NCBI GenBank assembly: GCA_964187785.1
Contig: OZ076409.1
Span: 7,814,001-7,878,000 of the forward strand
Length of the DNA: 64,000 nucleotides
Origin: Amphiscolops sp. MND2022
Lineage: Eukaryota
Direction of reading: 5' to 3'
The translations under genes and the position numbers were made by a program. Positions 1 through 64,000 of this stretch are shown here, piece by piece; position 1 is the first letter of the stretch; every line of letters begins with the position of its first letter. The notes beneath the pieces were generated by a model, which was given only the letters and a program-made list of their open reading frames with translations, had not been told where the DNA came from and made no database searches.

Positions 1-124
1 CCTCGTTGCTATCAGAATCATTGGCAGAAGACTGAGCCATGTCTGGGTCCGTTTGAACGGGTGTTTCTGATGAGGAACTAATAACTCTTCCGCTTCTGAG
101 TTCGGTGCCTAGATCTGGGTTCAT
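1..124 (-). CDS. gag: 5' end of gag of a second, tandem copy of element 1 (continues off the left edge)
   Basis: 1..124 is identical to 17008..17131, the start of gag ORF 15626..17131; ATG at 124 on the minus strand. Confidence 0.9.
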   Translation of the reverse strand, partial: MNPDLGTELRSGRVISSSSETPVQTDPDMAQSSANDSDSNE

Positions 125-696
125 AGAGGTGAGAGAAAAGGAATTATGAGTGAAGACTGGATTCTGGATGATTTTCGATTTATTTTACTATTTTGTGCCT
201 TTATTCGAACTCAAATTCACTATTTCTGAACTTGAGATGTAAATGCGATGAGTCTTACAGTAAGACAAGGATACTAGTATAGAATGAGAATAGTTAACGA
301 GGATTAAGTAGAGTTCATCCAAATTTCATCGAACAGGTATCAATCAAGAAATTACTCAAGAGTTGTGAAGGTAGCGTTTTTACGATGAATAAGAGATATG
401 TTTTCTAGTTCAAATCTGTCGTAATTCGTCCAACTGGACAGTAGCTAATCGCAATTTCGGTCTGAGTAATCTCTAATGGCGGTCCAAAATACAGCAGTTC
501 ACGTGTCTTTTCAGGCTGGTAAGACGCTAAATCTCTTACCAGCCGACTCTTATTGGCTATTGCCAGTTGGTGCTAATTGGTAAGTCACGTGACCGGTGTT
601 GTGAACTGCCGCAAGTTGGCCAAACCACATGGTACATCTACATATGTTAATTATGACTAATCATCACTTTACAATGTCGCAATTGCCTGCACACAG

Positions 697-2048
697 TGTC
701 ATGGTTTCCATAGCAACTCAAATCATTCAATAATGTACTAATTTCAAGTCAAAACAGAGTAAACTGCATCACAGGATGAGAAAACGATGTTTTTCCAACT
801 AATTCTAGCATTAAAATCAATACTTCAAAAACAAAGATGGAAACGCGATGAATTCGTCAGAATATTCGCTGATTTTCAAGTCTAGTTTAGCTCTGGATGA
901 AAATGCGATGAATGGTGGTCTTTTAGCTCGAAAATCAACACGATATGAACTGACGATGATAAAAGGATGAACTCGTCTTCAAAATGAATGATTTCCAGTA
1001 CAATTTAAATCAACGATGGTAAAAGGATGAACTCTCCTCGAAAATAACTAATTTCCAGCACTAGTGAAATTGACGATGAATTCAGGATGAATTCAGCCAA
1101 TAAAACAGGTGAAACAGCTAATCCTGCAGTGAAGACAAATATACGATGACTTTAGGATGAATACATTCAATAAAACAGCAAAATCTAATGAATGAAATTC
1201 CAACGATGGGTTTAGGATGAACTCAACTGAAAATTCGGTTAATTCTAACGTAAGTCGAACTAGCGATGGATTTACGATGAACTAGTGATGAGTTAATCTA
1301 ATAAAACAGATATCCAGCACTTCACTCTTTTTTAGGATGAATTAAGGATGTACTTTCTCATTTCTTGCATTTTCTGTTCAGGGCGATGGAATATAGATGT
1401 GTTATGCTCTTTTAAGAAATGAGAAGCACATTGAAGGTTAAAAATCACAAAACGACGATGAGTATAAGATGGTTTTCATGCATTTTAAAGTCCCGTGAGA
1501 TCCGCTGATGGATCACTAAATGAAATCAACTAAATGTCCCAAATTTTGTTCACCCGCAATCTTGGCGATGTGATTGCGATGAACCTTGATAACATAGCAC
1601 CGTGATTTCACTAGTAAGTGAAGTTAAAGGATCACTAAGTCCGCTGATGGATTAGTGATGAACTTTTCTGAAAATCGTCACGACTACAAGTCCTGAGGCG
1701 AGGGAGCTAGTAGAAGTTACATATTCCATTATTTCTACATCTCTCGGTCCAGTCTGACCGGAAAACTTCTCTCCCTCATCGTGACAAACCAATATTGAAT
1801 AAGATAGCACATTAAGAGCTATTGGCCAGATCATTTGTGCGGACACCGGAATTAGAGCGCTCAGTATTAAGTAAATATATATAGCTCAAACTCAGGGGGG
1901 ATAGGGATTAAAGTACAAGTAACGTAGGGTTGCTCACAACCATGGCTCTTATTATATGACATCATATTGCCCATATCTAAGTACATAAGACATAATATTT
2001 ACATTACAAATATTTAGTAGATTATATTTCCATCATGCTGGCATGACA
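697..2048 (-). repeat. LTR of element 1 shared by two tandem copies (3' LTR of the right copy, 5' LTR of the left copy); inner boundary tentative
   Basis: Outer boundary is firm: minus strand reads PPT-like CCGGGGAG then TGTCATG at 2048. Inner boundary 697 rests only on a 7-bp inverted repeat (TGTCATG 697-703 / CATGACA 2042-2048); no TGG primer-binding site follows it. TATA-like run at about 1873-1883. Confidence 0.55.
775..1660 (+). repeat. Array of GATG-N7-GATG motifs about 60 bp apart (repeated at 17782-18667)
   Basis: Motif starts at 775, 836, 896, 955, 1015, 1075, 1145, 1205, 1265 (triple), 1336, 1385, 1457, 1567 and 1646; sequence between motifs is diverged. Confidence 0.9.
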
Positions 2049-2062
2049 CTCCCCGGGGCGGG
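2049..2062 (-). other. Short polypurine-tract-like plus-strand primer of element 1
   Basis: Minus strand CCCGCCCCGGGGAG directly precedes the LTR start TGTCA; element 3 has the related CCCGGGGAGTGA before its LTR. Confidence 0.7.
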
Positions 2063-2575
2063 ATTTGGACTGAGAGTGCAGGGGCCAAATGTGCAGAGGA
2101 TGGTTGTCTCGGCGTTGGCTTCGACTGGTCCTTCGTTTGGTTGGGGAGAAAATGGCCTTCGTTAGTTCTGAATTGGCATGTCCTTCGTTTGTTCTGTCCT
2201 GTGAGAGCTTCTCTGAGAAGAGGACCTTCGGTAATCGTCTTTTCTGGCATCATTCCTGGGTGATTTCGGTTAAAATTTTCGACGCGGCAACTCTAATTCT
2301 TGGTCCATCGAATGTCCGTTGATCTGCATTTTATTGGTTGTCATGCTTTTGACGGGAGTTTCGGCTGGTTATTTTCGGTAGAAGCTGATTTCTCGGAGAA
2401 GAGTTTCCCTCCAAAACGCCTACGCTGAGTAAACAATTCGATTAGCTTCCCTGACAAATTGGCAGCGAGTCAGGGATGAATGAACGATGAATTGTTTGCT
2501 CAGCGAGACACTGATGCCGTTTAGCGGAGTGGCTGGCGCCGTTGCTTGTTTACTCGCGATGAAAGGAGATGAATC

Positions 2576-2677
2576 GTTGCCATAGCAACTGTCAAAAGTT
2601 ACTTCCGCTGCTCGACTTTTGAGTGAAAGGAAAGAGATGAATTCGTCGCCATAGCAACTGTTGCTCGATTTGATTGG
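2576..2677 (+). promoter_or_regulatory. Two RFX X-box motifs and a CCAAT box upstream of the antisense cargo gene
   Basis: GTTGCCATAGCAAC 2576-2589, GTCGCCATAGCAAC 2645-2658, ATTGG 2673-2677. The X-box consensus GTNNCCATRGNAAC is established knowledge. Confidence 0.65.
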
Positions 2678-3182
2678 CTGAGACTGAACTTATAAGTGAA
2701 GGAAATTACAACCGGTTGTCAGCGGCATTCTCATCCATAAATCATCCTCCATTCAAGTCGGTTTGAAAATCGCCACGATTTCCTTTGCGCGTTTCCGCTC
2801 AACTTCGTCGGTATTGATCTGAGACTGGCAGCTGTCAACAAATCAAATACTTGAAAAGTTTTTTGTCAAGTCCTAGGAGAGGACGATCCATTTTCAGAGA
2901 AAGCTTGAGTTGGCTGTACTGGGAAGAGAAGTGATGTCAGTATTTGAAATCGGAGTTTTTTCATCGATTTTTCATCTTCTGAATTCAAGTATTTGATTAA
3001 CATGGCATTCAAGCTGCGTCGCGCTCTTTGAAATCTTCTATTGAATTTGTCCTTCCGTAATCATGGTTGATCAGGCCATTTAATTACTGATCAAATTCTC
3101 TGTTCCTGAATTCTTCGATTTCTTTCCTTCTTTCACCTTCTTCCATTCTTTTCAGATTGTTTGTTTTGCAATTCACTTCGAG

Positions 3183-6100
3183 ATGTCAGACATTCATTCA
3201 GTCTACTCCTTACCAGATACCGAGGTCACAGAAAGTAAGTGCACTAGTTTTTCTTTTCTTCACAAACGGGTTAGGGACAACTAGGTACTGAAAATACGTC
3301 TTGCCTTAGCTGACTCAGTCCATTCTGTTGGCATCGTATCTGAGTTGACGACGCTTCAAACTGTGCCGCCGCAAGAGACTCCAATGGCCCAACCAGCTAT
3401 CGCTGAGCCTCAGGTTGACCCTGGTAGTCAGCCAAATCAAGAGTTCAATGTCCCGTATCTTCCGCAGTGTAAGTACTATCCTTCCGGCCTTCAGATCAGT
3501 CTTCGAATCCCTCATGTCTCATCCTTACTTCGTCCAGTAGTTGACTCCTTTTCGTATGGTGTTTCAGACCACTACCCCTGGTATGCTTCCCTAGGTAGCA
3601 TCACCTTCGGGTGGTATGACCGCCACATGCGGGACATGCTGCGGGATAGCATTCAGCAGTACAGTGAGTTTGTCAATTTCCTTTTCACTTCTCTAGGCTA
3701 TCGTCCGAACACTCCGATGTGATTCCGATGTAAACATCTCATCTGCATGTAGTGTCCTTTGCGGTCGATTACCCATGTAATTCACCTTCGAGATGAATTT
3801 AGGATGTGTCATGAACATTCACAGCTCTTCATGACTGACTCGCTGTAAATCCCATTTTTTGAAGATGAGTTTTGGATGTATTCTTCTCCGTTTTTTCTTT
3901 CTTCGCGCGGCGTACGCGCTCTTTCTTCTCTAATCGTCGTCGTCCAGTAACTGTTTTCTTCTTTCAGGCCCCACACCGATTCACGCGCCGAGGCCTCGGC
4001 CCATCACCTGTTCCATTGGAATAGGGACTAGTGATCACCAGGCTGAGAACATTGATGCTAGTACTCAGGGAGGGCCTCCTCAACTTGACTTGTCCTCGTT
4101 CCTTCAGGACTTGTCATTTGGGAGCGTAAGTTCTCCTGTCAGGCAGGCACCAGTGTCTGTACTGTCACCAGTGCTGAGGAGTTCTTTTGCCGCTAGTAGT
4201 CCTCCTCCTGCTCGTATCACTCTCGACGCTGCTGTGAATGCTGTTGTCGATTGCGTGGATGCAGTCATCGATGCCGTTGTCGATACCTCTGATCGAGCAG
4301 TCCAGGCCGTTGTGGAAGTCAGTGAGTCCTCCACCTTCCATGATCCTCCTGTTGAGGAACCTGTCATCGTTGCCTCTTCTTCTGTTCCTACCCTCCCAGT
4401 CAGCGACACTGATACAGTTGGTGATGCTTCCGTGAGTACCGCCGGCGGTGCTGAGACCCTACTTGAAGTCCCTGGTGACTTCTCGTCCGACATCCTTCTG
4501 CCTGCTGAACCTGACCGAGAATCTGCCTCTCCCAGTGCTGCTCTCATGTCGACCGTGGCTTCTCCCATGGGACCCAGTCTACTGGATAGTGATGACGAAC
4601 CAATCGCGTCCCGTCTGCCAGGTTAACTAAACAGCTTTAAACTGGTGAAGTATCTGATCAGTAGATTTTTCATTCATTTCCTTCTTCGCTTTTGCTTTCA
4701 CTAGCATCTTTCACGTTTTCCTTCTTTTCTATCCATTTTTCATCGTTCTTCTGTTTTCACTATATGGTTTTCTGCAGTTTTCCATTTTTCCATCACATTC
4801 TCATCGTCAAAGGTCGTTGAACATTAGTTTTCGCTCTCTAGTCCTTTTAGAATTTTCATCTCTTTTACATCTTTAAAATTTTCTCTTTTCGGTTTTCGCT
4901 ATTTGTCGGTGTTTTCTTTTCAGTTTTCATCTCTTTTTCATCGTTAAGTTGTTTTCGCTCTAAAATATCTCAATTTTGGTTCAAAGTCGTTCTATTTATC
5001 TCTTTTCCATCGTTCAAGTTTTCATTCTTTAAGGTTTCCATTTTTCATCCTGGTGATGTGCAAAATGCATCTCTTTTTCATCTTTTCGTTTTCTTCGTTT
5101 TCCGCTTATATTTCCTGATGAAAATATTATTTTACATCATTTTTTCATCACTCCGGGTGACTTTTTGGAAGTTTGCGGTGGTTTTTTCATTTTTCAGTTT
5201 TGTAAAGATTATTTTAAGATGATCTTGGTATTTTGTGTGAACGTGGTTGTTTTTAGTGGATGTGTTATGTGTTGGCATGTGATTATTTCTGTTTGTAGGG
5301 CGAAAAGTGATCAAGTCATGGTGGTTTTCTCATGAATACTGTGGGCTTGCACTGGGCTATGCACGAAGTCATCAATCGCGGCTATCATTCGTTCGATGTT
5401 TACTGTGCAAGCGTGATATCAATGTTGGCAGTCGTGGTATCACTACTTTCATGGAGCATTGTCGTGGGCTCCGTCACCATCGTTTGGACTGCCTGATTCG
5501 TTTGTTTCGGGATTTACCGTTGCGGCGACGCGATGGGTCATTGATGAGCAATGAAGAGAGTGTGGAGTGTAGGAGCAGCCTGGGCGGTGCAATGGTGCCA
5601 TTCATTGAGACGTGCCCCTCCTTTAGTGTACTGGAGGTGTTTGAGTTGGAAGCAGCTGGACGACCTGTGTGGGGGGACGAGGAGGAAGAGGATCTATTGT
5701 GTGAAAAGACCGTGCATCTGTTCGTGTGCCTGGTTATTGACGCAATCTATCGTGGGTGTCAGTTCGCCAGCGTAACGAGTTTGTGGGAGGTGATGGTTGC
5801 GTCAGAGCCGCAACATGCCTCTCTTTTCGGTGTTACTTGCGAAGTGAATGACGTGATGGTAATTCGTATTTCCTTCTGTTTTTTTTTGTTTCATGAAGGT
5901 TCGTGTAGATGGAAAAAAAATATACATTTAGTGGGTAGTTATCCATAGGTAGTTTTGAAGCTGGTGTAGGGGGGATTTTCAACTATTAATTGTGTCGGGT
6001 TATTTTTAAGCGGATCGTGAATTAATGTATAGTAAAGTTGATGTTTGTTTTTAGAGTGTGGTTCTACTGAGTTTGTGGCCGTACGCGATGAAGAGGCTAA

Positions 6101-7962
6101 TCACTCTGTGGTCTAACTGTGGGTTTACCAGCTTTCATGTGGCTGTTGGGCAGGGGCGCGTGACTGGCACGGTCACAATGTGTTCTCTAGAAGGGATCAG
6201 TCAGTACTGTGTCTTCAGTTTTTGTCTGTCTGAGGATTGGGAAAAACGAGTTGTCACGTGGATGATTAACATGTGGTGTTGTTTGCTTGGAGAACCTGTT
6301 CCACTTGGACTGTGTTGCGATGCGTTGCCTCAGCTGGGTGGACTGTTCCAAGCCGCCACTGGCGTTGGGTCACTGGAGTTGAAGACGCTGTCATTGTGTG
6401 AAATCAGTCGGACAATTGTGGACGTGGGAGGGCGGGCGCTCGGCGGGACTGATATTCACGTGGTGCTGAATCATCTGCAGAAGAGACTGAAAGGATATGT
6501 CAGGGATCCTCTGTTGTTGAGCTGCCCTCATCTGTTGCAGGTCGGTGTAGTCTTCCGCTTTTATTTGAGTGTTACTATGAGTTGTACTCTTTGTCTGTTT
6601 CTGTTGTTTGTATATTGGTAGTTGTTTGTATTGTAATATTTTGTTTTATCTATGTGGAGCTTGTTATGTTTTGTTTAGGCTATTTTATCCGGGGAAGTCT
6701 ACGTGTGGACTCTTGCTGATGTGTGCGATGAATTACGTGCCAATTGGGCAGAAGTGCTGTGTCTAGTTCGATTCGCTTCGGGAGACGGGCCAGTAGATGC
6801 GTTGGATCTTACTTTGAGGGTGGAGTTTGGGATCCCAATCAGGCTCCGAGCACTTAGTATGGTCTATCGTGCTTGTTAGTATGTCGTATACTTACCGGGT
6901 GGGAAGTTTCTGCAGTTGGCTTTACGTATTCGAGTGTTTAATCAATTCGCATTTTTCGGGAAGGGAACGGGGGGGTTAGTCCGATTATTTACTGTGTATA
7001 GAATTGTTGTGTTTTTCATTTCAGTAGTGACGTCGTACGAAAAGAGTTTCGGGTCTTCATCATTGCGGAGTTGTTACTGGGCGATCGAGAGTGCATTGTT
7101 TGTGAAACGCCTGCTGACTCTACTGGTTGATGAAGAGAGCCTGCCCACTGATCTGGATATCCGAGGGTGGTTGTTTGTGGATGTAGACAGTTATGTTGTG
7201 TCAGCGACTAAGTTACAAGCCCTTATCGCGAGTTTCAGCTCAGATGAGAATTTGACGGAAGATGTGGCTGTGTATGAAGAGGATGTGTCCCGAGTGCCTA
7301 ATTTCTTATTGTCTATCGTCAAGAACGTATTATTGCTACCAGGGATTCGTGACGATCTTGCTTTCGTGCGAAGTGTCTTTAGTTCACCCAGACTGGTTTG
7401 TGTGGCGGAAACTGATCTTGTGGCGGAAATTCGCAATTTTACTGGTTTACTTGTGGAAATGGGGCGGATCAGTTTAGTCGAACAGGATCGAATGGAGCTC
7501 GGATTTCTGGAATTCATAAGGGCTTTTCGGTGCGAGCCTAGGCTAGCTGGGGCGACTGCCGAGTATTCAGCCGTTGATCTGTTGCGTTTCTGTTCCAGTC
7601 GCGGGTCGCAGAGTCTGTTACAACTTGTCTTTTGCCTGGGAGGGGTGGTGCAGAGCACTTGCAATACTATATGCGAAGGGATCGGGCACCTGCCGAGCGA
7701 TGTCATGAGCTGTGTATGTGCAGTAATCTCTAGTTATTTGTCTGCTAATCATGTGCGAAGTTACGGTAGTGTCAGTGGGCCACTGATGGAAGAAGTGATG
7801 GAGTCGCACAGAAGGCTCGTCGATCTATCAGAGATTACAGAGGGCATGTTGTGGGACGACGTCGGTATCGTGGCTGGGGAAGATTATCGTCTCCAGTTAT
7901 ATGCTAGTCTTGGTTATGATGTGACCGGGGAGCGGGCTGCCAGTCCCGAGATTGGAAACTGA
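3183..7962 (+). CDS. Seven-exon antisense cargo gene, about 1014 aa: low-complexity N-terminus, BED-like Zn finger, degenerate hAT-transposase-like body
   Basis: Exons 3183-3234, 3310-3468, 3968-4621, 5299-5858, 6055-6540, 6679-6874, 7025-7962. All six introns are GT..AG with matching phases (1,1,1,0,0,1); joined length is 3045 nt with no internal stop. CLLC-x16-H-x5-H at 5397-5480. AATAAA at 8063. Confidence 0.8.
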
Positions 7963-8062
7963 CTTATTAACTGTTTATGTTGTTCATTGTTTTGCTATAT
8001 AATTTGTTGTATTTACATATTAGTGTAGTTATTCATATGTTGGGAGACCCATGAAAAAGGTC

Positions 8063-8068
8063 AATAAA
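8063..8068 (+). terminator. Polyadenylation signal of the antisense cargo gene
   Basis: AATAAA about 100 nt after the TGA at 7960-7962. Confidence 0.55.
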
Positions 8069-10535
8069 TGGAAAGCACAGTGATGACTATAGTGAGAATG
8101 ATACAAATCCAGATGCTACGGCGGAAAGATCGGTAGTAGTGTGTTTACAACATTAGTTATTTTGGTGCCCAACAGCTGTTTTTCTTTTGAGTTGTTAGAG
8201 ATAGTTACAGAGGATATTAAGTACGTGTAAATCAACAAGTTCGTCCAACAGTTCACTTGAAGCATTGTCTTCGGTATTTTTGTATCATAGATCATCGGTC
8301 GGGCGTCGCTTTTATGGTGTTCATCGTTATTACATCTCGTGGTAGTGTGAGTAACTCGTCAGCGTTTGATCTTTGATTTTTCATCGTATTTTCATCACGT
8401 TTTCTTCGGTCGGCCGAGCGACGTCGCGAAAAGTGATTTTTCATCTTTTTTACATCGTTTGTTATATGTGATTCATTGCATGTTTGTTACATGTGATTTT
8501 TCTACATAGTTCATCGTTTTTTCATCTTGCCTTTGAATTTTTGCATTTTTGCTAGCTATTTGGTGTAATTCATCGTTTTTGTATCGCAAGTTTGACTTGA
8601 CAAGTTTTTTGCTCATTTTGCTGTATAGTTCATCTTCTTTTCATCGTGCGTTTGAAATGTACGGATTTTGCGTGTTTTCGATGTTATTTGGGTATAACGT
8701 AAGCGGGGGTTGCATTTTTCATGTCCGGAGGAGGTTTTTATTAATATTGCGGTGTTTCGGATTGTTTTCTTCATGTATTTTAGCGTTATACGGTTATAAC
8801 CGTTTGTCGTGTTTTTGAATTTGCATGAGTTTTATGTTACATGTGTTTTGATCATCGTCGTCATGTTTCTAATTTGTCAACTACGGAACGTTATTGCATG
8901 TATTTTTAGTTCGCTTTCTGGTGACCGCCGCTTGCGTGGCGGTCGAAAATAAGTTCACTCAGCAGTGGTACTGATAGCCTGTAGGCGTGCAAGGTACTAG
9001 TGGCTTCAGTCCAGAGCTGGGTGAGTGGAGCTGCTCCGCTCCTTTCAGATAAATGGAATCTCGTAGTTTCGGGCTATATATAGTCTATATGTCATTTTTT
9101 CGGTTGGTTGTTTGCCATTATTCGTCAAAATGGGTTTGTCCATTTGACGGTCAGGCCGATCAATCAATGTGTTTGACATCTACGGTTATGCATGTGTCCA
9201 GTTTTAGACTATCTGTTTCTTGTATTTGCATGTATGGATTGTTACATGATGTGTTCTTTTAAATGGGTTGCCCCATTATTGACATGTCGTTATATGTTCG
9301 GTGTTAGTTTCATGTTTTTTGATTGTATTTTCGTTCATTTGGACAGGGCTTTGTCGTCACAAAGCCCCTACAAAACTAACTGAGAATCCACTAGCCGCTG
9401 GATAACCAACGCAGCAAGCTTCATCCGAATATGGTTGTGAGCTCCCCGCCTCAACTAACCAGCACTCTTTTCAGAGAAATGCCAGCCAGCACGAAGGAAT
9501 GGTTTTAGCTTTTCGATAGGGGTGTTTTGTATGTTATGATCTGATGTTTACTGAGGGGTGCTCACTCCTTTATTAGTTTTGTAGGTGTTTCGTCAATTCT
9601 TATATTTTGCATGTAAATTAGTAGACTTCATGTATTTTCGTTTGTTTGTTTCATTTTTATTCGTCTAGGTTCGGATGGTTTTGGTGTGAATTGCATATAT
9701 TATCTCGTTCATTTTTGAACGGTACATGTATATTTCCGTGCGTTGCTCATTTGTATTGCATGTAGTTTGGAATTGTTAATTGCTTTCGTGACGTCATTGA
9801 TTTGGCAGGTCTTTGAACTTTACATGTATTGATCATTACATTTTTGTGTCGCATAATTTCGTTGCATGATTCGAAATAAGGTCGGTTGTTTTTTATCGTT
9901 TCGTGGAGTTACATGTTGTTTGCGAATTAGCTGATTTATTGTGATGTTATGTTGATGGTGTTTCCCATCACAAAGAGGTGTTGGTAAGTCATTTAATATT
10001 TTCGAATTTCCATTTAGACTAAATTCATCGTTTTGACATCCTCCAGCGAAGCTAGAGTATTGTGTCAGGTTAACGATAAATTCGGTCACGATTTGATGGT
10101 AGTGTCCATCACAAATTCATCTCGTTAATTGATTTCGTGTAATTTATGAATAATTGGATCGAGTTCATCGCTATTTCATCCTCTAGCCGAGCTAGAGTCT
10201 TATGATAGTATGAACGTGATTGCGTTCGCATTCTGATGGTATTTTCCATCTCAAATGCATCGTTAGTAAATATTGCATGTTGATTGGTCGAATTTTTGAC
10301 TGAGTTCATCACCTTTTCATCTCAAATTTTGTGTGTTGTTTTTCCTGGGTTTTTGATCATGTTTCATCCATTTTACATCTCGTTTTGTTTGTATGCGGTT
10401 TTCATGTGATTTTTAGTGACTTTTCATCCATTTTACATCTTCATGTACTTTTTAAGTTCACATTGCATGTAATTCATTCGTTATGTGATTTGTTCATCCG
10501 TAATACATCTCAGATTTAAAATGAGACTTTCTTGG

Positions 10536-13500
10536 CTAAATCGTTACGTCTATTTTGTTGGTCTTTCTCAGTGCGTTTCTAGCTGAAGTAATCTCATGAA
10601 TGAGGAAGTCTGGATACGTTTTCGGTGTAGGGTTCTCACGTAACCTGTACCTACTTTGATTTGATCTAGACGGTCTAGGACTCATCCTTTCTTCATCTTC
10701 ATTTTGCGTGTTTGTCTGTTGTGACTGGTTTTCGTGTTGTTCGTCTCTCAGAGGTACTCTTATCCTACTTTCATCGCGGGGAGGCGGTAGAATAATTTCT
10801 TCTCGCGTTCCAAATCTAACTGTAGGTGGTCTAAAGTTGTTGTGATCAGTTTCTACTTGGTGATAGTCTATTCTCGTGGTTATTTCTGGTGGAATTACTT
10901 GTGGAGTGTGTTGTTCTTGTACCCGAGGAATTGTTTCTTCTGAAGGCTCTTCTTCGACCAAGTCTTGATCTAGATTGTCATTCTCATTCTGATCTACTTC
11001 GTCGGTCGTCGGAATATTCGAGTCGAAAATGTCCGTGTCTTCAACCCTTTCGGTATCTGGGTAGAGATGTTTGGACACGTTGATGTCGTCAATCGGAAAT
11101 TCCGGTTTGAACAATCTCAGTCGCATGCGATGTACGCACTGAGTTTGGTGTGTGCCTACTTTGCGGATGATGTAGTTGCTATCGGATAGCACTTTAATCA
11201 CCTTGTACGGTCCTTTCCAATGGAAAGTTTTAAACTCTTCTTTGCTTCTCTGAGAGTCGTACTTAGGGTCTAGTAGGAACACAAATTCATTCACCTTCAG
11301 TGGCTGTGCTCGTGCTTTTCTATCATAGTACGTTTTGTACTTGTGATAGGCGGAAATGATGTTATCTAGATTGTCTCTGAAGATAAAATTCATTTTGTCT
11401 AGAATTTCGTTCACGTCCTTGCACTTTGTTTCAGCCGGTTTGTTTGCGTTTCGGAATTGCAGATCTAGTGAGTTGTATGGTGTTCTTCCGTGGAAAATTT
11501 CAGTTGGTGAACATTTCAGTGAATCATGATACGTTGTGTTATGGGCCATGATTGCTATGTCGACATAGCGGTCCCATTGTGGTCTGTCTGCGTTTACGCT
11601 AATCTTAAGGATCTTTTTCAGTTTCGCGTGCGTTCTCTCCACCATGCCTATTGTCTGCGCGTGCTTTATCGTGGCATGGGAGATGTGAATATCAGCCGCT
11701 TTCGCGATTTCAGACAGAAGTTCCGCCGTGAACGCCGTGCCTTTGTCGGTCAGAATGTGTTTGGGCACATACGCGTGTTTTGTGAAGATCGACAGTAGTC
11801 CTCTGACTACGGAATGTGTGTCAGGTCTCTTCAGCGGAACGGCGAACAGGTAGCGCGAAAAAACGTCAACAGCCGTCAGAATGTGTGTAAAACCGTTCGA
11901 TGCCGGGAGTGGACCAACGATGTCTATTTCCAGCAGGTCTTCTGGTCCGTCGCACGGGTCGTAGATTTTTTGTAACGGTGGACGTAGTTGCGTTTCTTTT
12001 ACACTTTTAGACTTCATGCAGTTTTCACATCCGTCAAGGACTTTTTGAACTTTACAGGCTAAGTTAGGAGAGTAATATCTTTTACGAAGTTCATACAACA
12101 TTTTCTTTAAACCAGGGTGTCCTTGTACCGGGCTGTTATGTAGAGTCCTAATTATTTTCAAAATACAGTCTTCAGGAACGACTAACTGCTTATGAGACTC
12201 TAGTCCCGTGTGATCAAAAAACTGTCTGTACAGGACACCGTTTACAACTTGTAGGCGTTTTCGATTTTTGTACAACTTTTGAAAAAACTGGTCTTGCATG
12301 TTAACTGGGTGTTGCAAAATTTCAGTACCTTCTAAAAATCTAATCATTTTTTGGATAACCCAGTTATTTTTCTGGACCTGAATTAGATCGATCCCCTCGG
12401 CGGGGCTAACCTGACTCATTACCGGGTGTGATAATGATACTTTACGGATGAATTGCGAGAGTTGAATCGGCTCGTCCACGTCTGTGAGACGGTACGTCAG
12501 ATGGTTGTCAGTCGCGAAGTCATCTGAGGCCGCTGTTCTCTCACAGTTGGTGAACTTCATCCCTTTCCCATCGTCATGAGCCACGTCAGTGCCAGTTGCC
12601 AATTTCATCTCTTTGACATCCTTCTGGCGTTTGCATCTGAGTGGTTCGCTCGCGGGGAAGTAATCAGGCTCGTCTTCCTCCTGTTTTGGTGTACGGGAGG
12701 CGATGTCGATCTCGATCCTGTGAATTGGAATAGTATCAGTCAATTTTAAATGTACACGGTCTTCAGGTCTAATCTCAAGCCGAGATAAGTAATCCGCTGC
12801 GGGATTTTCAACTCCTGGAACATGTGCTAATAGAAAATTGAACTGAAGGGTTTGGTCGCAAAAATTCCAAAGTGAAGGCGGGATATGCTTCGCCTGGAAA
12901 AATCTAGTTAAGGCCTTATTGTCAGTCATAACAATGATGGGTTTTTTCGCACCCCACAAAATGTGGCCAAATTCATCGAAGGCAAAGTGCATAGCTAAAA
13001 ACTCTTTGGCATACATTGTTAGAGACATCTGGCCGCCCTGAAATTTCTTAGAGCCAAATGCAACAGGGGCGTATGTATGTTTGACTGACGGGTCTGCATA
13101 ATCTTCGATTAACAACACATAGCCTGCAGCGTGTTCGCTGGCGTCACACATGATTACCAGTTGTTTATCTGGTAATGGCAGTTTTAGAGACACTTTTGTT
13201 GCTTTTAACAAACTTTCATTAATTTCAAAAATAGCATCTTTATGTTGTTGGTTCAGCTTGAAAGGGACGTCTTTCTTGATGAGTTCCTGTAAACAGCAAG
13301 TTTTATCAGCTAGACGGGGAATGTAAGACCTGTAAAAGTTCACAAAACCAAGATAACGTTGCAACGCTTTCACTGAATTGGGGGGTTTCAACTTCGTTAA
13401 ATAGTCTGTTACGCGTTTTTCAATGGGAGCAATACCAGTGCTAGAAATGGTTTTTCCCAAGTACTCAATTTGTTTTTGTCCAAATTCACATTTACTCATG

Positions 13501-15629
13501 CTAAGTTTAAGACCAGCTTTGTGCAATTGTTGAAAAACAAGTTCAAGGTTGGTAATCAATTCTTCGGGTGAGTGTGCTGCAATTCCAATATCGTCAACAT
13601 ATTGGGCACAGCGGTCCGCTTTGACCAAGGGGTCCAAATACTCACGGATTACTCCTGTAAATGCTGACAAAGAACGATTAAGACCTTGTGCTAGACGTAA
13701 AAATGCAAAAGTTCTAGACCCAAAATTAAACGATAACAGTTGGACAGATTGCTCATCGGCCATTGGAATGCAATGGTAGGCCTGGGAACAATCAAGTTTG
13801 CAGAAGTACTTTTTCCCGGCCATGTGTTGGGCAGCGTCAGCAATTGTTGTTACGGGATGATTGTGCTCACCGTAATCGTTTTTGATCAGGTGGTTTATTC
13901 TTCTCAAGTCAACTAAAATCCTCAATTTACCATTAGGTTTACGCTGAGCAAATATCGGGGAAGAGTATTTGCTGTGAGGCAAAGTAGTTATAATCCCGTA
14001 CTCTTGCATTAGGGCTAATTCCACGAGCAAATCGTCCTTCAAATTTGTCGGAGTCGGGAGACTTTGTGAATAAACAGGTTCTTCATGTTGAGGTGTTAAC
14101 TTAACTTTAAAATCAGTGTTCATGCCAATATCAAAACGGTGTCTAGCAAAAATGGAGTTGTACTTTACCAGCAACTCCTCTACCTGTAACCGTTGAGACG
14201 GAGTAAGAAGCGAGTCGTCCCAGTTGAAGTTCTTCAGGAAGTTCATCCGTTGTTCATCGGATTGGGACGGGTCAAGCTTCTCGAGCTCTCGCAGTGCCAG
14301 AATCTCATCATAAATCCGTCGCTCAATTGCGTTGAGTTTGTCTGGCTCACTGCACGTCTCGGGAGTTGGGTACCACTTGGTTGACTTCATTTCAGGGTTC
14401 ACGAACAGTTGGTTGATCACTGCTTCGGCTTCATCTGGATACTTGGTGATCAAGTTCAAGTGTTCCACTGGCATGGGCGTGATGTTTGCCGCCTGGTGTG
14501 GTGTCGGGATGCGAAAGTGTGCCAGAGTGGTGTTGGCTTCAAGTGTGTACGTGTGGTTGTTTGGGTTGGTGACCTGGATTGTCGTCTTGCCCTCGTCTAG
14601 GTCAACCAAAGCTGGAGAAACAAGCAGACACGTCTTTCGCATGAATCCAGGTGAGCCCTCAACTGTACCAGTTGTAAGTGAGATGTCCGCGTCACTGTGG
14701 ACCTGTATCATCACTTGATGGAGAGGAGGGATCACTGTTCTAGTACTGGAACACAAATCAATTAAACCAGTTTTGAATCTGTTGTTCTTTTGCTGTCTAA
14801 CTTGCATGGACATCATGTGATTAGGGAAGTGGACAAGGTGGTTTTTGATGTCTAAGTTGACTGAGTACTTTTCAAAAAAGGACATTCCAATTAAAATTGT
14901 TCCCATTGTTGGCAGGATTAGGAACGTTTCTTCGAATACTTTTCCAGCAACGTAAAATCTAAGTAAGACTTGCTTACGCACTGGGACTAAGTTCCCGTTT
15001 GCTATTTGAATTTTGAAATTCGGAGGGGGGAATTCTTGAAGGATGGCTTCTGGATGAGCCGTTGTTATTTTTCGTAGTTCGGCTTCAGACATTGCACTTT
15101 GTATTGCGCCTGTGTCTAAAAGTGCGCTGTTTTCGTATTTGTCAAACTGAAGAGGGACGTACAGCATTTTATCTTTCTTGTTTAGATGTAAAGTGGGACT
15201 GAGAACGTGAATTTCTGTTTTAATTGCATGTTTTTTAGTTTTTGAAACATTAATACTACTCTGTTTTGCATGTTTTTTAATACTAAGCCGTTTGTCGATT
15301 GTTGAGTGTGAAGTCGAGTCGTCGTCTAGATGGTGGGTTTCCATCTCTTTGGCATCTTCCACCTGCCTCATGGTGTTTGGTTGCCAGTTCATCGTTTGTT
15401 CATCGTTGATTTCAGCGAGTGGAGAAAAGCGGCTGCCGTTGAGTTGACTTGCATTTCTCATCGCTTTTTCATCGTTGGAAAGTCTTCGCTGATAGACGTC
15501 GTCAGCTTTTGGTCGTTTGTCCAATGAAGGCTGCCATTTCTTCATTGGACGGTCGTGTGTAGTTGGTTGAGTCGAAAGTCGTTGGTCGCGCGTTGTGTTT
15601 CTAGCGGGTGGAAATCGTGGCGGAATCAA
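10536..15629 (-). CDS. pol: Gypsy pol polyprotein (protease, RT, RNase H, integrase), expressed by -1 frameshift
   Basis: LLDTGA protease; QYVDDI RT; MCDASE RNase H; H-x6-H...CENC and EIDIVG/LTDKG/MVERTH integrase motifs; 1697 codons open. Confidence 0.96.
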   Translation of the reverse strand: MIPPRFPPARNTTRDQRLSTQPTTHDRPMKKWQPSLDKRPKADDVYQRRLSNDEKAMRNASQLNGSRFSPLAEINDEQTMNWQPNTMRQVEDAKEMETHHLDDDSTSHSTIDKRLSIKKHAKQSSINVSKTKKHAIKTEIHVLSPTLHLNKKDKMLYVPLQFDKYENSALLDTGAIQSAMSEAELRKITTAHPEAILQEFPPPNFKIQIANGNLVPVRKQVLLRFYVAGKVFEETFLILPTMGTILIGMSFFEKYSVNLDIKNHLVHFPNHMMSMQVRQQKNNRFKTGLIDLCSSTRTVIPPLHQVMIQVHSDADISLTTGTVEGSPGFMRKTCLLVSPALVDLDEGKTTIQVTNPNNHTYTLEANTTLAHFRIPTPHQAANITPMPVEHLNLITKYPDEAEAVINQLFVNPEMKSTKWYPTPETCSEPDKLNAIERRIYDEILALRELEKLDPSQSDEQRMNFLKNFNWDDSLLTPSQRLQVEELLVKYNSIFARHRFDIGMNTDFKVKLTPQHEEPVYSQSLPTPTNLKDDLLVELALMQEYGIITTLPHSKYSSPIFAQRKPNGKLRILVDLRRINHLIKNDYGEHNHPVTTIADAAQHMAGKKYFCKLDCSQAYHCIPMADEQSVQLLSFNFGSRTFAFLRLAQGLNRSLSAFTGVIREYLDPLVKADRCAQYVDDIGIAAHSPEELITNLELVFQQLHKAGLKLSMSKCEFGQKQIEYLGKTISSTGIAPIEKRVTDYLTKLKPPNSVKALQRYLGFVNFYRSYIPRLADKTCCLQELIKKDVPFKLNQQHKDAIFEINESLLKATKVSLKLPLPDKQLVIMCDASEHAAGYVLLIEDYADPSVKHTYAPVAFGSKKFQGGQMSLTMYAKEFLAMHFAFDEFGHILWGAKKPIIVMTDNKALTRFFQAKHIPPSLWNFCDQTLQFNFLLAHVPGVENPAADYLSRLEIRPEDRVHLKLTDTIPIHRIEIDIASRTPKQEEDEPDYFPASEPLRCKRQKDVKEMKLATGTDVAHDDGKGMKFTNCERTAASDDFATDNHLTYRLTDVDEPIQLSQFIRKVSLSHPVMSQVSPAEGIDLIQVQKNNWVIQKMIRFLEGTEILQHPVNMQDQFFQKLYKNRKRLQVVNGVLYRQFFDHTGLESHKQLVVPEDCILKIIRTLHNSPVQGHPGLKKMLYELRKRYYSPNLACKVQKVLDGCENCMKSKSVKETQLRPPLQKIYDPCDGPEDLLEIDIVGPLPASNGFTHILTAVDVFSRYLFAVPLKRPDTHSVVRGLLSIFTKHAYVPKHILTDKGTAFTAELLSEIAKAADIHISHATIKHAQTIGMVERTHAKLKKILKISVNADRPQWDRYVDIAIMAHNTTYHDSLKCSPTEIFHGRTPYNSLDLQFRNANKPAETKCKDVNEILDKMNFIFRDNLDNIISAYHKYKTYYDRKARAQPLKVNEFVFLLDPKYDSQRSKEEFKTFHWKGPYKVIKVLSDSNYIIRKVGTHQTQCVHRMRLRLFKPEFPIDDINVSKHLYPDTERVEDTDIFDSNIPTTDEVDQNENDNLDQDLVEEEPSEETIPRVQEQHTPQVIPPEITTRIDYHQVETDHNNFRPPTVRFGTREEIILPPPRDESRIRVPLRDEQHENQSQQTNTQNEDEERMSPRPSRSNQSRYRLRENPTPKTYPDFLIHEITSARNALRKTNKIDVTI

Positions 15630-17131
15630 AAACCCTGATTTATGTCTTCATCAGAGTAGGTTTCTTGGTCTTCTTCTTCGGTGACTGCTTGCATAGGATT
15701 CATCGGCTTTTGTTGTCGTTTTAAGTCTTGTCTTCTAGTTCTGTTGTCATCTTGTGAATTCGTTGCGTATGGAATCTTTCCATATGCAGAACTGCTTTCT
15801 TTAGGGACACGTCGTCTGCAATCCCTTGCTGAGTGGCCTGTGTAACCGCAAATCTGGCAGACCAATTTTGGATTGTATTTCGGCTTATCTGGATCGGCTG
15901 CTTTCTTCATCGGGATTGCATCCTCCTTCTTTATGCCGTTCGCTTCGTCTCGTTGTCGGGCGCGACATTCCGTTTTGCGGTGACCTGTTTTTCCGCAGTA
16001 GAAACATTGTCCCTCAAATCGTTTTCGTTCTGTCGGTTGTGCGGTCGTCGTTGTTGTTGTAGGCTTCGTCGTTGTAATCGTAGGCGGTGCTGAGGAGGTG
16101 ACCGCGTTGAATGGTTGGATTGCCGTAGGTGGCGCGACGTACTGCTGGTACTGGTATTTTCGCATTAGGTAGGTTTTGATTTCCTCTGGGGAGCTCTCTT
16201 CTTTGTTTGCCATGGTGAGCTCTTGTTGAATCTCGACTGGCAGTTTTCCAAACAGGAACATTTTGATTATTCTGTCGGCCTCATTGCCGAAGGCTTGTTT
16301 GGCAGTCTTCTTGAGATTTTTGAGGAAATCGCCGAATGTTTCTGTTGTGGGATCATAGCGTGCTTGATCCCATTTGTAACGGGCCACTTCCTTTAGATCC
16401 TCTTTTGCAAATTCTTTTCTGAAGAGGTCGAGTACGTCCTTTAGTGTTGTCATTGGCGTTATCTGGATGGATTGCCAGTATTCTATTGCGTCATCTCTCA
16501 AAAGGCTTTGAAAGAAGTGTAGTTTGTTCTCCTCGGTGATTTTGTTGGCAAGCGGGCTAAGGTGGTTGAGGAGAAGGTGCTCAAATTCGACGAATTTGTC
16601 TTTTTGGCCTCTGAAATTTGGCACGTGTGTCTGCAGAAGCTTCGTGTTGGTGGTTGTGTTTTTGATCCGTTGGGGGATCGTCTCGATTGCATTGAGTAGT
16701 CGTTCCTCATTGCTTCTGGGGGTTGATTCTCCTTCGTCTGAATCGTCTTCTTGGTAACTTCTGAAGTTGGTGAAGCTGGTTGTCGGGCGGTTGGAGCGGG
16801 TTTCTGTAGCTCCTGTCACCATGTCGAGCCCTACTGTGTGGGTCGGCTTTGAAGGACCTTTCGAGGTTGACTGTCGGTTTTCGGTGTCTGTCTTACTTAT
16901 GACAGCCATCATTAAGTCCTTCAGTTGACTGAACTCATTCTGTAGTTCGTTTATCTTTCTCTCATAACTCTCTTTTATTTCAGATAACTGAGACGAGATA
17001 TCGGAAACCTCGTTGCTATCAGAATCATTGGCAGAAGACTGAGCCATGTCTGGGTCCGTTTGAACGGGTGTTTCTGATGAGGAACTAATAACTCTTCCGC
17101 TTCTGAGTTCGGTGCCTAGATCTGGGTTCAT
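15626..17131 (-). CDS. gag: Gypsy gag
   Basis: 501 aa; coiled-coil N-terminus; CFYCGKTGHRKTEC and CQICGYTGHSARDC zinc knuckles. Confidence 0.95.
   Translation of the reverse strand: MNPDLGTELRSGRVISSSSETPVQTDPDMAQSSANDSDSNEVSDISSQLSEIKESYERKINELQNEFSQLKDLMMAVISKTDTENRQSTSKGPSKPTHTVGLDMVTGATETRSNRPTTSFTNFRSYQEDDSDEGESTPRSNEERLLNAIETIPQRIKNTTTNTKLLQTHVPNFRGQKDKFVEFEHLLLNHLSPLANKITEENKLHFFQSLLRDDAIEYWQSIQITPMTTLKDVLDLFRKEFAKEDLKEVARYKWDQARYDPTTETFGDFLKNLKKTAKQAFGNEADRIIKMFLFGKLPVEIQQELTMANKEESSPEEIKTYLMRKYQYQQYVAPPTAIQPFNAVTSSAPPTITTTKPTTTTTTAQPTERKRFEGQCFYCGKTGHRKTECRARQRDEANGIKKEDAIPMKKAADPDKPKYNPKLVCQICGYTGHSARDCRRRVPKESSSAYGKIPYATNSQDDNRTRRQDLKRQQKPMNPMQAVTEEEDQETYSDEDINQGF
15629..15635 (-). 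other. -1 ribosomal frameshift slippery heptamer G GGU UUU
   Basis: gag reads CAG GGT TTT TGA; a -1 slip enters the pol frame (TTG ATT CCG...). Confidence 0.85.
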
Positions 17132-17703
17132 AGAGGTGAGAGAAAAGGAATTATGAGTGAAGACTGGATTCTGGATGATTTTCGATTTATTTTACTATTT
17201 TGTGCCTTTATTCGAACTCAAATTCACTATTTCTGAACTTGAGATGTAAATGCGATGAGTCTTACAGTAAGACAAGGATACTAGTATAGAATGAGAATAG
17301 TTAACGAGGATTAAGTAGAGTTCATCCAAATTTCATCGAACAGGTATCAATCAAGAAATTACTCAAGAGTTGTGAAGGTAGCGTTTTTACGATGAATAAG
17401 AGATATGTTTTCTAGTTCAAATCTGTCGTAATTCGTCCAACTGGACAGTAGCTAATCGCAATTTCGGTCTGAGTAATCTCTAATGGCGGTCCAAAATACA
17501 GCAGTTCACGTGTCTTTTCAGGCTGGTAAGACGCTAAATCTCTTACCAGCCGACTCTTATTGGCTATTGCCAGTTGGTGCTAATTGGTAAGTCACGTGAC
17601 CGGTGTTGTGAACTGCCGCAAGTTGGCCAAACCACATGGTACATCTACATATGTTAATTATGACTAATCATCACTTTACAATGTCGCAATTGCCTGCACA
17701 CAG

Positions 17704-19055
17704 TGTCATGGTTTCCATAGCAACTCAAATCATTCAATAATGTACTAATTTCAAGTCAAAACAGAGTAAACTGCATCACAGGATGAGAAAACGATGTTTT
17801 TCCAACTAATTCTAGCATTAAAATCAATACTTCAAAAACAAAGATGGAAACGCGATGAATTCGTCAGAATATTCGCTGATTTTCAAGTCTAGTTTAGCTC
17901 TGGATGAAAATGCGATGAATGGTGGTCTTTTAGCTCGAAAATCAACACGATATGAACTGACGATGATAAAAGGATGAACTCGTCTTCAAAATGAATGATT
18001 TCCAGTACAATTTAAATCAACGATGGTAAAAGGATGAACTCTCCTCGAAAATAACTAATTTCCAGCACTAGTGAAATTGACGATGAATTCAGGATGAATT
18101 CAGCCAATAAAACAGGTGAAACAGCTAATCCTGCAGTGAAGACAAATATACGATGACTTTAGGATGAATACATTCAATAAAACAGCAAAATCTAATGAAT
18201 GAAATTCCAACGATGGGTTTAGGATGAACTCAACTGAAAATTCGGTTAATTCTAACGTAAGTCGAACTAGCGATGGATTTACGATGAACTAGTGATGAGT
18301 TAATCTAATAAAACAGATATCCAGCACTTCACTCTTTTTTAGGATGAATTAAGGATGTACTTTCTCATTTCTTGCATTTTCTGTTCAGGGCGATGGAATA
18401 TAGATGTGTTATGCTCTTTTAAGAAATGAGAAGCACATTGAAGGTTAAAAATCACAAAACGACGATGAGTATAAGATGGTTTTCATGCATTTTAAAGTCC
18501 CGTGAGATCCGCTGATGGATCACTAAATGAAATCAACTAAATGTCCCAAATTTTGTTCACCCGCAATCTTGGCGATGTGATTGCGATGAACCTTGATAAC
18601 ATAGCACCGTGATTTCACTAGTAAGTGAAGTTAAAGGATCACTAAGTCCGCTGATGGATTAGTGATGAACTTTTCTGAAAATCGTCACGACTACAAGTCC
18701 TGAGGCGAGGGAGCTAGTAGAAGTTACATATTCCATTATTTCTACATCTCTCGGTCCAGTCTGACCGGAAAACTTCTCTCCCTCATCGTGACAAACCAAT
18801 ATTGAATAAGATAGCACATTAAGAGCTATTGGCCAGATCATTTGTGCGGACACCGGAATTAGAGCGCTCAGTATTAAGTAAATATATATAGCTCAAACTC
18901 AGGGGGGATAGGGATTAAAGTACAAGTAACGTAGGGTTGCTCACAACCATGGCTCTTATTATATGACATCATATTGCCCATATCTAAGTACATAAGACAT
19001 AATATTTACATTACAAATATTTAGTAGATTATATTTCCATCATGCTGGCATGACA
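17704..19055 (-). repeat. 5' LTR of element 1 (inner boundary tentative)
   Basis: Identical to 697..2048; unrelated flank begins at 19056. Confidence 0.6.
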
Positions 19056-19630
19056 ATGGGAAATAACAAGATAATGTCTAAAAGAGTTGACAGCCCTTTC
19101 ACCAGAAAGACTTCAACTCACTGAAGTACACGGAACACAACAAATTAATATAGCGTTTGTTATTGTTGATGTTCAATTTGGAGAGCTGTGTGGAAATAAC
19201 CTAAAAACACAATTATTAGATCCTACTCAAGTGAGTAGCAAAATAGAAACTTGTCGTCAGATTTTCTAAGAATGGAACAAAGAGAGGGTTTGGAGAATGA
19301 GGCTTGAAAAAAACGACGAATTCGAAGCCTTATTGAGGGAAATGAGATCAAACAAAAGAGCATCAACAACAAAAAAATCGTTATCGTAAGCAAATGGCAA
19401 GCATATTGTTGAACCTTTGGGATTACAAATTAAACAGTCTCGGAATTCACGCATCAGAAAACGAAAATAGATTTTCTCTAAAAAAGGAAATTTCTCGAAG
19501 AAACGAAATAAAAACGAAAATTCATTTTCTCTCCGTTCTTCGGAAATGAACGAACATAGACATATGTAAAATCAAAGACAGAGTCAACTAGATCCAGACG
19601 ATACTATAATAGTAAATGACTGCGCGGAAG
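19056..19630 (+). pseudogene. Possible decayed gag-like fragment of another retroelement
   Basis: Broken frames give a coiled-coil-like peptide (LEKNDEFEALLREMRSNKRAST) resembling Gypsy gag N-termini; weak evidence. Confidence 0.3.
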
Positions 19631-20396
19631 AGAATCATCAGACATACTAAGATTTGTACACTGAAACTTCAGTTCGAAGAAAGTGCTGCCAAAGAGACTG
19701 TTTCACTGCTTTTTCTAGTGCTCATTTTTTTGTCATTTGCCGATCGCTCGGAACTGTTTCTCCAAAGGGTCAGGATAAATACGCATATTCATTTTGGCCT
19801 GGCAATTGAAACATTCCAGAGCCTACGCAATTGTTCGACATCTAAAAAGATTTTGTGAATTCACCATTGGTTGCTCGCCAGTTACCGGTAATTTCATTTT
19901 TCCTGATTTTGTGATTCAAATTTTTCGCTATTTCTGGATCCCATCCGTTTCCATCTCTGTTGGCGTTCTGCTAAATCAAACACTTATTATTCTTTTTTTT
20001 CTTATCGCTACTTTTTGGAAAGATTTTTCTGTTACGATGTTCTCTCAATCAAATTGTTCACGGAAGCATATGAGAACATTTCACACTATGTTGCTCTTCT
20101 GAAAGGTCAAGATATCCATGATTATCAGCCTGTGCGTTCGGCCAATTGTTACAAATCTGCACAGGCGAAAGAAACAAATGTACTGTATAATAGGCCGGGA
20201 ACGGCCCGAGTCGGCGCCGGATCTAAGGCTCAAAAATAGCAAAAGGACTTCAAATTATTGTCATATCCGAGCTCGAAAACGGTACATCCAATCTTCGAAA
20301 ACGATACATCCGAACTTTGAAAACGTTATATCCGAACTGTGAAAACGTTATATCTAAACTTTGAAAACGTTATTTTTGGAAAAAGTCGCATAGTAC

Positions 20397-29725: not shown

Positions 29726-29789
29726 AACTTCGTCATTCTACCCTCTGGCTCACTCAAAACTAGTCACTACAGCTGAATGAAAAATAACC

Positions 29790-31141: not shown

Positions 31142-31312
31142 ACCCATACTCAGGTCTTAAATATACTACCTCTTTTTGAACTCCTTACAACTTCATACAT
31201 AACAATTCTCATACTCTATTCACACTTATTTAACTTTACCTTTTCAATACCCATAACACCCTCTGACACAGAACACTATCTTCCATCGGATGATCCAAGT
31301 ATTACAAATCTC

Positions 31313-58555: not shown

Positions 58556-58850
58556 TAATGCATAGGTCTAAAAAGGACCACTGTTAGACTTACAGGGGCA
58601 AGTTCTCTCTGGAGCGAGCCGTGGGCCGGTTCGTCCTTCAATTGCAGCAATGCAACATCGGCTCCGTAAGGGGGCCTCTACAAACTTAAAATTTAACTCT
58701 AACTAACTAACGAACTAGAACAAAACCTTTGAGTAAACAACATGACAAATTAACATCTCGAGAGCATTTCAAGATTCTTCCAAGGTTGTTACAAGAATTG
58801 TTACAAAGACTGAGGGCAAAGGAAAAATGGGGACAACTAAAATGATAAGG

Positions 58851-63995: not shown

Positions 63996-64000
63996 TACAC

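Follow-up and report, generated by a model that had tools for sequence, protein, structure and literature searches.

The stretch of DNA analysed here, a 64-kb window of contig OZ076409.1 in the 1.07-Gb assembly of Amphiscolops sp. MND2022, begins with a Ty3/Gypsy long terminal repeat (LTR) retrotransposon (1-19055) that carries, on the strand opposite to its gag and pol genes, an additional gene of seven exons. The carrier element lies on the minus strand, is intact and measures 19,241 bp. Positions 1-2048 of the window are 100 % identical to 17008-19055, and in the 1200 bases upstream of the window the repeat extends for 186 nt more and then ends, so that each LTR is 2234 bp long; the two are 100 % identical and end in TG..CA. 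The element is very young, and is flanked by a 5-bp target-site duplication, ATGGG, one copy of which is at 19056-19060. A sequence resembling a primer binding site (PBS), TGG..., directly adjoins the 5' LTR from 16821 downward, and a short purine run beside the 3' LTR, on the opposite strand, is likely to be the polypurine tract. The Pfam domains RVT_1, RT_RNaseH, Integrase_H2C2 and rve follow one another in this order in pol, a zf-CCHC domain is found in the gag open reading frame (ORF), and both genes are open. The region between the stop of pol (10536, minus strand) and the 3' LTR (ending at 2048) covers 8.5 kb (2049-10535), and the antisense gene fills 4.8 kb of it. The features of the element are as follows, where the diverged loci are twelve other copies described below and TTCATC is a recurrent motif.

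1..2048, minus strand: 3' LTR (2048 of its 2234 bp within the window), from identity to 17008-19055
2049..3182, plus strand: region from the 3' LTR to exon 1, with 94-99 % identity between subfamilies over 2600-3000; would contain the promoter and 5' untranslated region (UTR) of the antisense gene
3183..3234, plus strand: exon 1, ATG, 17 codons and 1 nt; matched in 9 of 12 diverged loci
3310..3468, plus strand: exon 2, from the splice model; matched in 11 of 12 diverged loci
3469..3967, plus strand: intron 2, unusually conserved (90-96 % between subfamilies)
3968..4621, plus strand: exon 3, low-complexity N-terminal region; hypervariable island 1 (~3930-4610)
4622..5298, plus strand: intron 3, T-rich, conserved to ~5190, with TTCATC..TTCATC arrays of ~70-nt period
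5299..5858, plus strand: exon 4, with a BED-like zinc finger (~5322-5492; Pfam zf-BED below cut-off)
6055..6540, plus strand: exon 5, conserved alpha/beta segment, from the family alignment and a low-confidence AlphaFold2 (AF2) model
6679..6856, plus strand: exon 6, from the splice model and the diverged loci
7025..7962, plus strand: exon 7 and stop codon; all-helical domain and conserved C-terminal tail (~7849-7956)
8063..8068, plus strand: AATAAA hexamer, 101 nt past the stop
8300..10535, no strand assigned: non-coding spacer from the antisense gene to the pol stop, with TTCATC arrays spaced 60-140 nt; conserved from ~8400
10536..15647, minus strand: pol (protease, reverse transcriptase, RNase H, integrase), open over 1703 amino acids (aa), from ORF and Pfam
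15626..17191, minus strand: gag-type ORF with CCHC zinc knuckle; its stop-to-stop frame extends into the 5' LTR
16822..19055, minus strand: 5' LTR, 2234 bp, from LTR identity, the PBS-like TGG... and the ATGGG duplicate

We note that the stop-to-stop frame of gag opens within the 5' LTR (16822-17191, minus strand) and reads through the PBS, with an ATG at 17131 inside the LTR. Translation of gag starts either in the LTR or at a later ATG; a start inside the LTR is found in yeast Ty1.

The exon model was obtained by enumerating combinations of splice donors and acceptors from the ATG at 3183, and the chain listed above (3183-7962) is the only fully consistent one made of canonical sites. The spliced frame of 3027 nt encodes 1008 aa and contains a single stop, which is terminal, and the six introns are all GT..AG, range from 75 to 677 nt and have pyrimidine-rich acceptors. 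The initial annotation of this locus, made from the sequence and a list of its ORFs, had joined ORFs that do lie on the plus strand into seven exons with six phase-compatible GT-AG introns, and this structure is confirmed both by the enumeration of sites and by the diverged copies. All of the peptides that it quoted occur in our translation. Its length of 1014 aa is to be corrected to 1008 aa: the strong donor 3234|GTAAGT is in phase with the pyrimidine-rich acceptor at 3310, and the acceptor at 3285 cannot serve intron 1 because it is out of phase with this donor. The prokaryote-style ORF calls of relatives diverge immediately past the end of exon 5.

The gene is carried by every sampled subfamily of the element, and purifying selection maintains its open reading frame as the element multiplies. 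At the DNA level, at least 40 scored copies of exons 4-7 are present at 97-100 % identity (309 candidates in the genome), and for the exon-7 peptide 127 matches were scored out of 973 candidates, of which matches 109 are stop-free. These include 47 full-length matches at ≥97 % identity, all 47 without stops, and there are ~70 further exon-7 matches at 57-65 % identity. Twelve diverged loci of ~10 kb each were picked mostly from the stop-free exon-7 matches, so that this set is biased toward an intact exon 7; exons 3-7 occur in order and antisense to a pol match in all twelve, in addition to exons 2 and 1 at the frequencies given above. Most exon peptides align in these loci from first to last residue, and the aligned intron ends are GT..AG at 62 of 72 positions and GC..AG at one more. 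In exons 4-7 any gaps in the alignment come in threes, and introns 4-6 are gap-ridden. The same pattern is seen among 20 close copies, in which no indel event falls within the 2162 nt of exons 4-7, with 36 such events in intron 4, 38 in intron 6, 115 in intron 3 and 20 in the 3' UTR. Compared with the window copy, the 20 close copies show 1018 synonymous and 764 non-synonymous differences and 2 stops, counts that do not represent independent events because the copies share ancestry; 16 of the 20 have neither stop nor frameshift.

Nei-Gojobori estimates of the ratio of non-synonymous to synonymous divergence (dN/dS) are well below 1 across family members. In the unsaturated pair formed by the window copy and copy L038, exon 6 has a ratio of 0.12 while exons 4, 5 and 7 lie at 0.21-0.26; the other informative pairs range over 0.07-0.39, and no pair exceeds 1. 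Even the poorly conserved exon 3 gives 0.14-0.24. Between subfamilies dN is 0.16-0.33 and synonymous sites are saturated. The gene is part of the element and has stayed under purifying selection during repeated cycles of copying, and thus serves the element; exon-specific conservation together with frame-keeping excludes a chance origin of the frame. As such, we consider it very likely that this is a real, selected and spliced gene that is owned by the element.

The encoded protein consists of a BED-like finger and ~650 residues of conserved domains without detectable known relatives. The product of exons 1-3 (~288 aa) is of low complexity and poorly conserved, and its exon 3 portion is probably disordered. 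Exon 4 encodes a C-x2-C-x16-H-x5-H finger with conserved aromatic residues before it; across 25 sequences the Cys, His and aromatic positions vary hardly or not at all. The best Pfam match of exon 4 is zf-BED, at 18.5-18.8 bits against a cut-off of 20.6 (E 0.0016-0.0021), and zf-BED is reached at E ≤ 1 in 9 of the 25 exon-4 family members, with a best value of 0.0016. Exon 5 is conserved, and its AF2 model, which is of low confidence (predicted local distance difference test (pLDDT) 46.7), has a helix, three strands and a helix, followed by further helices. The model of exon 7 is all-helical with a mean pLDDT of 71.5, reaching 81-94 in blocks over most of residues 11-200, and the exon ends in a tail (W-D-D-x-G..Y-R..G-E-R-x-x-S-P-E-I-G) that is kept even in relatives at 23-29 % identity. 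In a library of 1.84 billion proteins we found 70 relatives of exon 7 (down to 23 % identity), 67 of exon 4 and 18 of exon 5. All are exon-sized ORF calls, and no longer (fused) or annotated relative of exon 7 was scored among them; the ten exon-7 relatives whose source was looked up, and all exon-4 and exon-5 matches with a listed source, are nameless entries from European Nucleotide Archive assemblies.

Searches for known relatives of these domains gave values at the level of chance. With sequence profiles against PDB, exon 7 had no match at E ≤ 10, and the best values for exon 4 (0.11) and exon 5 (0.75) were chance-level. The exon-7 model gave a best Foldseek E of 0.33 in PDB and of 0.73 in BFVD, which is noise level for helical proteins. 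There was no usable match for exon 7 or exon 5 in the Protein Atlas, the JGI metagenome scan returned four short pattern-driven matches, none of them convincing, and no Rfam family was found within 1-20000.

Divergence between subfamilies of the element is distributed as a mosaic. Identity is 80-99 % in pol (where it is 95-98 %), in the block upstream of exon 1, in intron 2, in most of intron 3 and in the spacer from ~8400, and falls to only 52-75 % in two islands, the first being exon 3 (~3930-4610) and the second (~5190 to ~8380) running from exon 4 through exon 7 and the 3' UTR, with the small introns in between. Exon 3 has 52-74 % nucleotide identity between flanks at ~95 %, and differences at third codon positions begin at its first codon, right after a near-identical intron, and end ~12 nt before the donor. 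For the same pairs of copies the synonymous divergence (dS) of pol is 0.12-0.36 while the exons are saturated. These islands are not due to a higher local rate, because the window copy and L038 have diverged equally in exon 7 (0.13) and pol (0.16); for the window copy and L034 the values are ~1.0 in exon 7 versus 0.06 in pol, a difference of ~16-fold. The window copy groups with L034, L036 and L040 in the pol tree, and with L038 and L039 in the trees of exons 4-5 and of exon 7. In approximately unbiased (AU) tests the alternative groupings are rejected (p 4e-54 and 6e-44), with the caveat that the clade groups were named after the trees had been seen. Exon 3 has been shuffled independently of exons 6-7 (dS 2.1 versus ~0.1 between L033 and L042), and close copies chosen by exons 4-7 differ strongly in exons 1-3. 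Exons 4-7 fall into at least six deep allele lineages, and modules of exon 3 have been shuffled separately, all in a uniform backbone. On the simplest reading of these alignments, several old allele lineages would persist while template-switch recombination homogenises the rest, and the borders of the islands would be sharp because diverged exons no longer offer homology for crossover. An ADAR-type origin of the islands, by editing of a duplex between genomic RNA and spliced antisense mRNA, was considered and rejected: many of the differences are transversions, and island 2 includes small introns and the 3' UTR.

An element-encoded nucleic-acid-binding regulator is the most likely identity of the product. 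We favour, with moderate confidence, the view that this is an accessory gene of the retrotransposon itself, an antisense additional ORF between pol and the 3' LTR that here has seven exons, and that its product regulates the element. How it might do so can be proposed only tentatively. Transcription would start from a promoter just inside the 3' LTR and proceed opposite to the genomic RNA, and the transcript would be spliced and polyadenylated short of pol. The introns would persist because reverse transcription copies the other strand, in which these splice signals are absent, an explanation already given in the initial annotation and one that follows established logic; retrotransposition reporters with an antisense intron use the same principle. 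The protein may then enter the nucleus, bind nucleic acid by its zinc finger and regulate expression, chromatin or integration of the element. Bipartite TTCATC...TTCATC arrays, with a spacing of ~60-70 nt or multiples of it, are found at 4846-5100, 8309-8660 and 10013-10440, and inverted in the 60-nt tandem repeats of the LTR (940-1096 and 17947-18103); they are confined to subfamily-conserved non-coding blocks and the LTR repeat, and might be binding sites.

Several points weigh against this interpretation. The gene model and its splicing are predicted from genomic sequence. Among the 12 diverged loci only 3 have a canonical polyadenylation hexamer in the first 400 nt past the stop, and as such little weight can be given to the AATAAA at 8063-8068, the polyadenylation signal mentioned in the initial annotation. 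The zf-BED match, at best 0.0016, stays below the Pfam threshold in all 25 exon-4 family members, so that the BED-like finger reported by the initial annotation is visible at sub-threshold strength and its binding of nucleic acid is a prediction. Beyond the finger no known family or fold was matched by Pfam, PDB profiles, Foldseek, BFVD or VIA-align (48,161 chains). Most older copies have 1-3 stops or frameshifts, and a single one of the 12 diverged loci has all seven exons free of them; lesions are to be expected in these copies, since such insertions are decaying. Finally, the bare 8-mer of the arrays occurs 23 times in the window against 9.6 expected, ~2.4-fold over shuffles, and the link between the motif arrays and the protein is pure conjecture.

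The mosaic pattern also bears on a different role for the protein, that it is chiefly a counter-defence factor against host silencing or restriction, with an arms race that keeps and exchanges deep alleles. Retroviral accessory genes that confront host factors show such diversity, and the deep lineages of exons 4-7, the shuffled exon-3 modules and the hypervariable, apparently disordered N-terminal region would all fit this role. However, the dN/dS values of the informative pairs show no excess of non-synonymous change, the deep lineages are equally explained as old element lineages with backbones homogenised by recombination, and no domain indicates a host target. We consider a chiefly counter-defensive role unlikely.

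The initial annotation had proposed that the retroelement adopted a hAT transposase, of which the gene would be a catalytically dead descendant, with a BED finger, an RNase H-like core, an insertion domain and a hAT C-terminal domain. Some features of the protein are compatible with such a descent. The BED-like finger is in the right relative place, and hhalign pairs it with the BED finger of the genome's own hAT transposases (E 0.038); the ~650 aa past the finger are of hAT-order length; the helix, three strands and helix modelled with low confidence for exon 5 could open an RNase H-like fold; and the all-helical model of exon 7 matches what is expected of a hAT insertion domain. However, BED-type fingers occur outside hAT elements, and no hAT family (Dimer_Tnp_hAT, DUF659 and others) was matched at E ≤ 1 in 27 exon-7, 16 exon-5 or 25 exon-4 family members, including the PF05699 dimerisation domain in 0 of the 27 exon-7 members. 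The Dimer_Tnp_hAT model does work in this genome, where it scores in at least 150 other places (2215 candidates). The genome is rich in hAT elements with full-length open transposase frames (e.g. L043-L047). For direct comparison, a reference alignment was made of five full-length transposase ORFs of the same genome (578-690 aa), in which Dimer_Tnp_hAT is found in all five, DUF659 in three and zf-BED in two, and which has D, D, C-x-x-H, R-W and S-E-R-x-W-S where they are expected. Against this reference the exon-5 family reached an hhalign probability of 0.07 %, the exon-7 family 0.14 % and the exon-4 family 1.4 % with only the finger aligned, values obtained with shallow profiles. An RNase H-like core (D, D, E; C-x-x-H) found no sequence match in exon 5, whose model (pLDDT 46.7) is too poor to be compared at the level of fold.

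The motif equivalences that had been drawn by eye are likewise not reproduced by any alignment. The stretch VQSTCNTIC, read as the counterpart of S/A-x-ER-x-FS, sits in a poorly conserved and low-confidence part of exon 7, and the conserved C-terminal tail is unlike the hAT signature of the genome's own transposases. That terminal inverted repeats (TIRs) and a flanking duplication (8 bp for hAT elements) are absent around the gene was observed correctly, as only weak inverted pairs made of the recurrent motif are present, and this weighs little on hAT descent because it is expected for a domesticated gene. One such pair, 5116-5139/8374-8397, brackets island 2 and was considered as a TIR, and was rejected because its arms consist of the common TTCATC motif and are 75 % complementary. 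The part of the proposal that the gene is resident in the element rather than freshly inserted agrees with its family-wide carriage inside Gypsy copies, and the part that derives it from a hAT element is not supported; taken together, we regard hAT descent as quite improbable. A passively carried host gene fragment, acquired by transduction and without a role for the element, or a chance frame, is a very remote prospect: gene capture by retroelements is known (PMC7264820), but the gene is present in 12 of 12 diverged loci and always with pol, it is under purifying selection across saturated synonymous divergence, no copy lies outside an element among the loci examined, and a chance frame would not show exon-specific conservation and frame-keeping.

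Within the favoured interpretation of an accessory regulator, a more specific role can be put forward as a rather doubtful possibility. The multi-exon regulatory gene of this new protein family may be an exchangeable specificity cassette, in which ancient allele classes of an N-terminal module and of a finger-plus-C-terminal module are held apart by selection while recombination homogenises the remainder, including introns 2 and 3. The nearest parallels to such a cassette would be the immunity regions of near-identical phages and the env subgroups of retroviruses.

The retroviral gene HBZ is spliced and has a promoter in the 3' LTR. HBZ of human T-cell leukaemia virus type 1 (HTLV-1) and APH-2 of HTLV-2 are mentioned as retroviral antisense genes in PMC11963269. 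Like them, the Amphiscolops gene encodes its protein on the strand opposite to the genomic RNA, at the 3' end of an element that replicates by reverse transcription, and expression apart from that RNA and a nuclear, regulatory product, as in these viruses, would be predicted for it; in contrast, HBZ has a single intron and is a small protein of the bZIP type, and no bZIP match was found in any Pfam scan of the exons or family members. Antisense genes between pol and the 3' LTR have been described in plants, namely gene23 of maize Grande, and in rice RIRE2, Silene Retand (TRP28) and PvRetro13. According to PMC7264820 and PMC11963269, the roles of these plant and fungal genes are not established, some products are nuclear or predicted to bind DNA, the authors liken them to HBZ-type genes, and the Retand region between pol and the LTR is 2.9-6.6 kb. 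These plant genes, known as aORF-3R, share with ours the long region between pol and the 3' LTR, the antisense strand, presence in most copies of a family, lack of similarity to known proteins, a suggested nuclear or DNA-binding role and tandem-repeat arrays in the region. They differ in that ours has an animal host, seven exons, 1008 aa, a BED-like finger and a region of 8.5 kb, versus the shorter one of Retand; the word "intron" is absent from the main texts of PMC7264820 and PMC11963269. Neither the exons nor the family members matched Transposase_28/TRP28 (PF04195) at E ≤ 1. Outside plants, brtn is an additional antisense gene of Boty-like Ty3/Gypsy elements in Botrytis cinerea and Sclerotinia (Zhao et al. 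2011, as cited in PMC8365987 and PMC7264820), and is thus likewise an extra antisense gene of a Gypsy family; it differs in being fungal, the comparison being one of descriptions in those citing articles. Genes of the hAT/ZBED type share the C-x2-C...H-x5-H finger with preceding aromatics and a weak zf-BED score, and differ in that the present multi-exon gene has no detectable hAT core or C-terminal dimerisation domain and no TIRs. The open-access literature searched gave no account of an animal LTR element with an antisense gene of several exons. Relative to the known antisense genes, the present one is set apart by the animal host, the size, the seven exons, the BED-like finger, the lack of TRP28 and the apparent behaviour of the alleles as cassettes.

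A second Gypsy-type element at 22000-37000 (plus strand), a region of strong GC skew (about -0.4), has Retrotrans_gag, reverse transcriptase RNase H and integrase zinc-binding domains in ORFs at 23954-28830. Downstream in it, an ORF of 752 aa at 31097-33355 (plus strand) matches Pfam Monjiviricetes_fusion, a viral fusion glycoprotein, at E 8e-22, and looks like an envelope gene of negative-strand-RNA-virus type. A third retroelement at 54276-63998 (minus strand), with a G+C content of 52-56 %, has a pol frame (reverse transcriptase, RNase H, integrase) that runs off the end of the window, and then two large open frames on the same strand, of 795 and 655 aa, without a Pfam match. The only clear non-transposon coding sequence that was noticed in the window is a host exon with a Per1-like domain at 39767-40534 (minus strand; E 2e-34). 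The assembly as a whole has 7 matches above cut-off to nuclear-receptor ligand-binding domains, a hallmark of animals.

Little is understood of the antisense extra genes of LTR elements: they have been described mainly in plants and in one fungal family, and a function has been established for none of them. The Amphiscolops gene adds to the proteins encoded by retroelements a conserved nameless family whose relatives in public assemblies reach down to 23 % identity. It also emphasizes a caution for annotation, as multi-exon gene models of host-like appearance inside LTR elements can be genes of the element. With deep allele lineages in a single genome and a young high-copy family, the copies themselves give a direct record of selection and recombination, and this provides a concrete system for asking what antisense genes do for a retroelement. 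If the alleles do act as exchangeable specificity cassettes, the protein would set which elements or host factors a subfamily cooperates or competes with.

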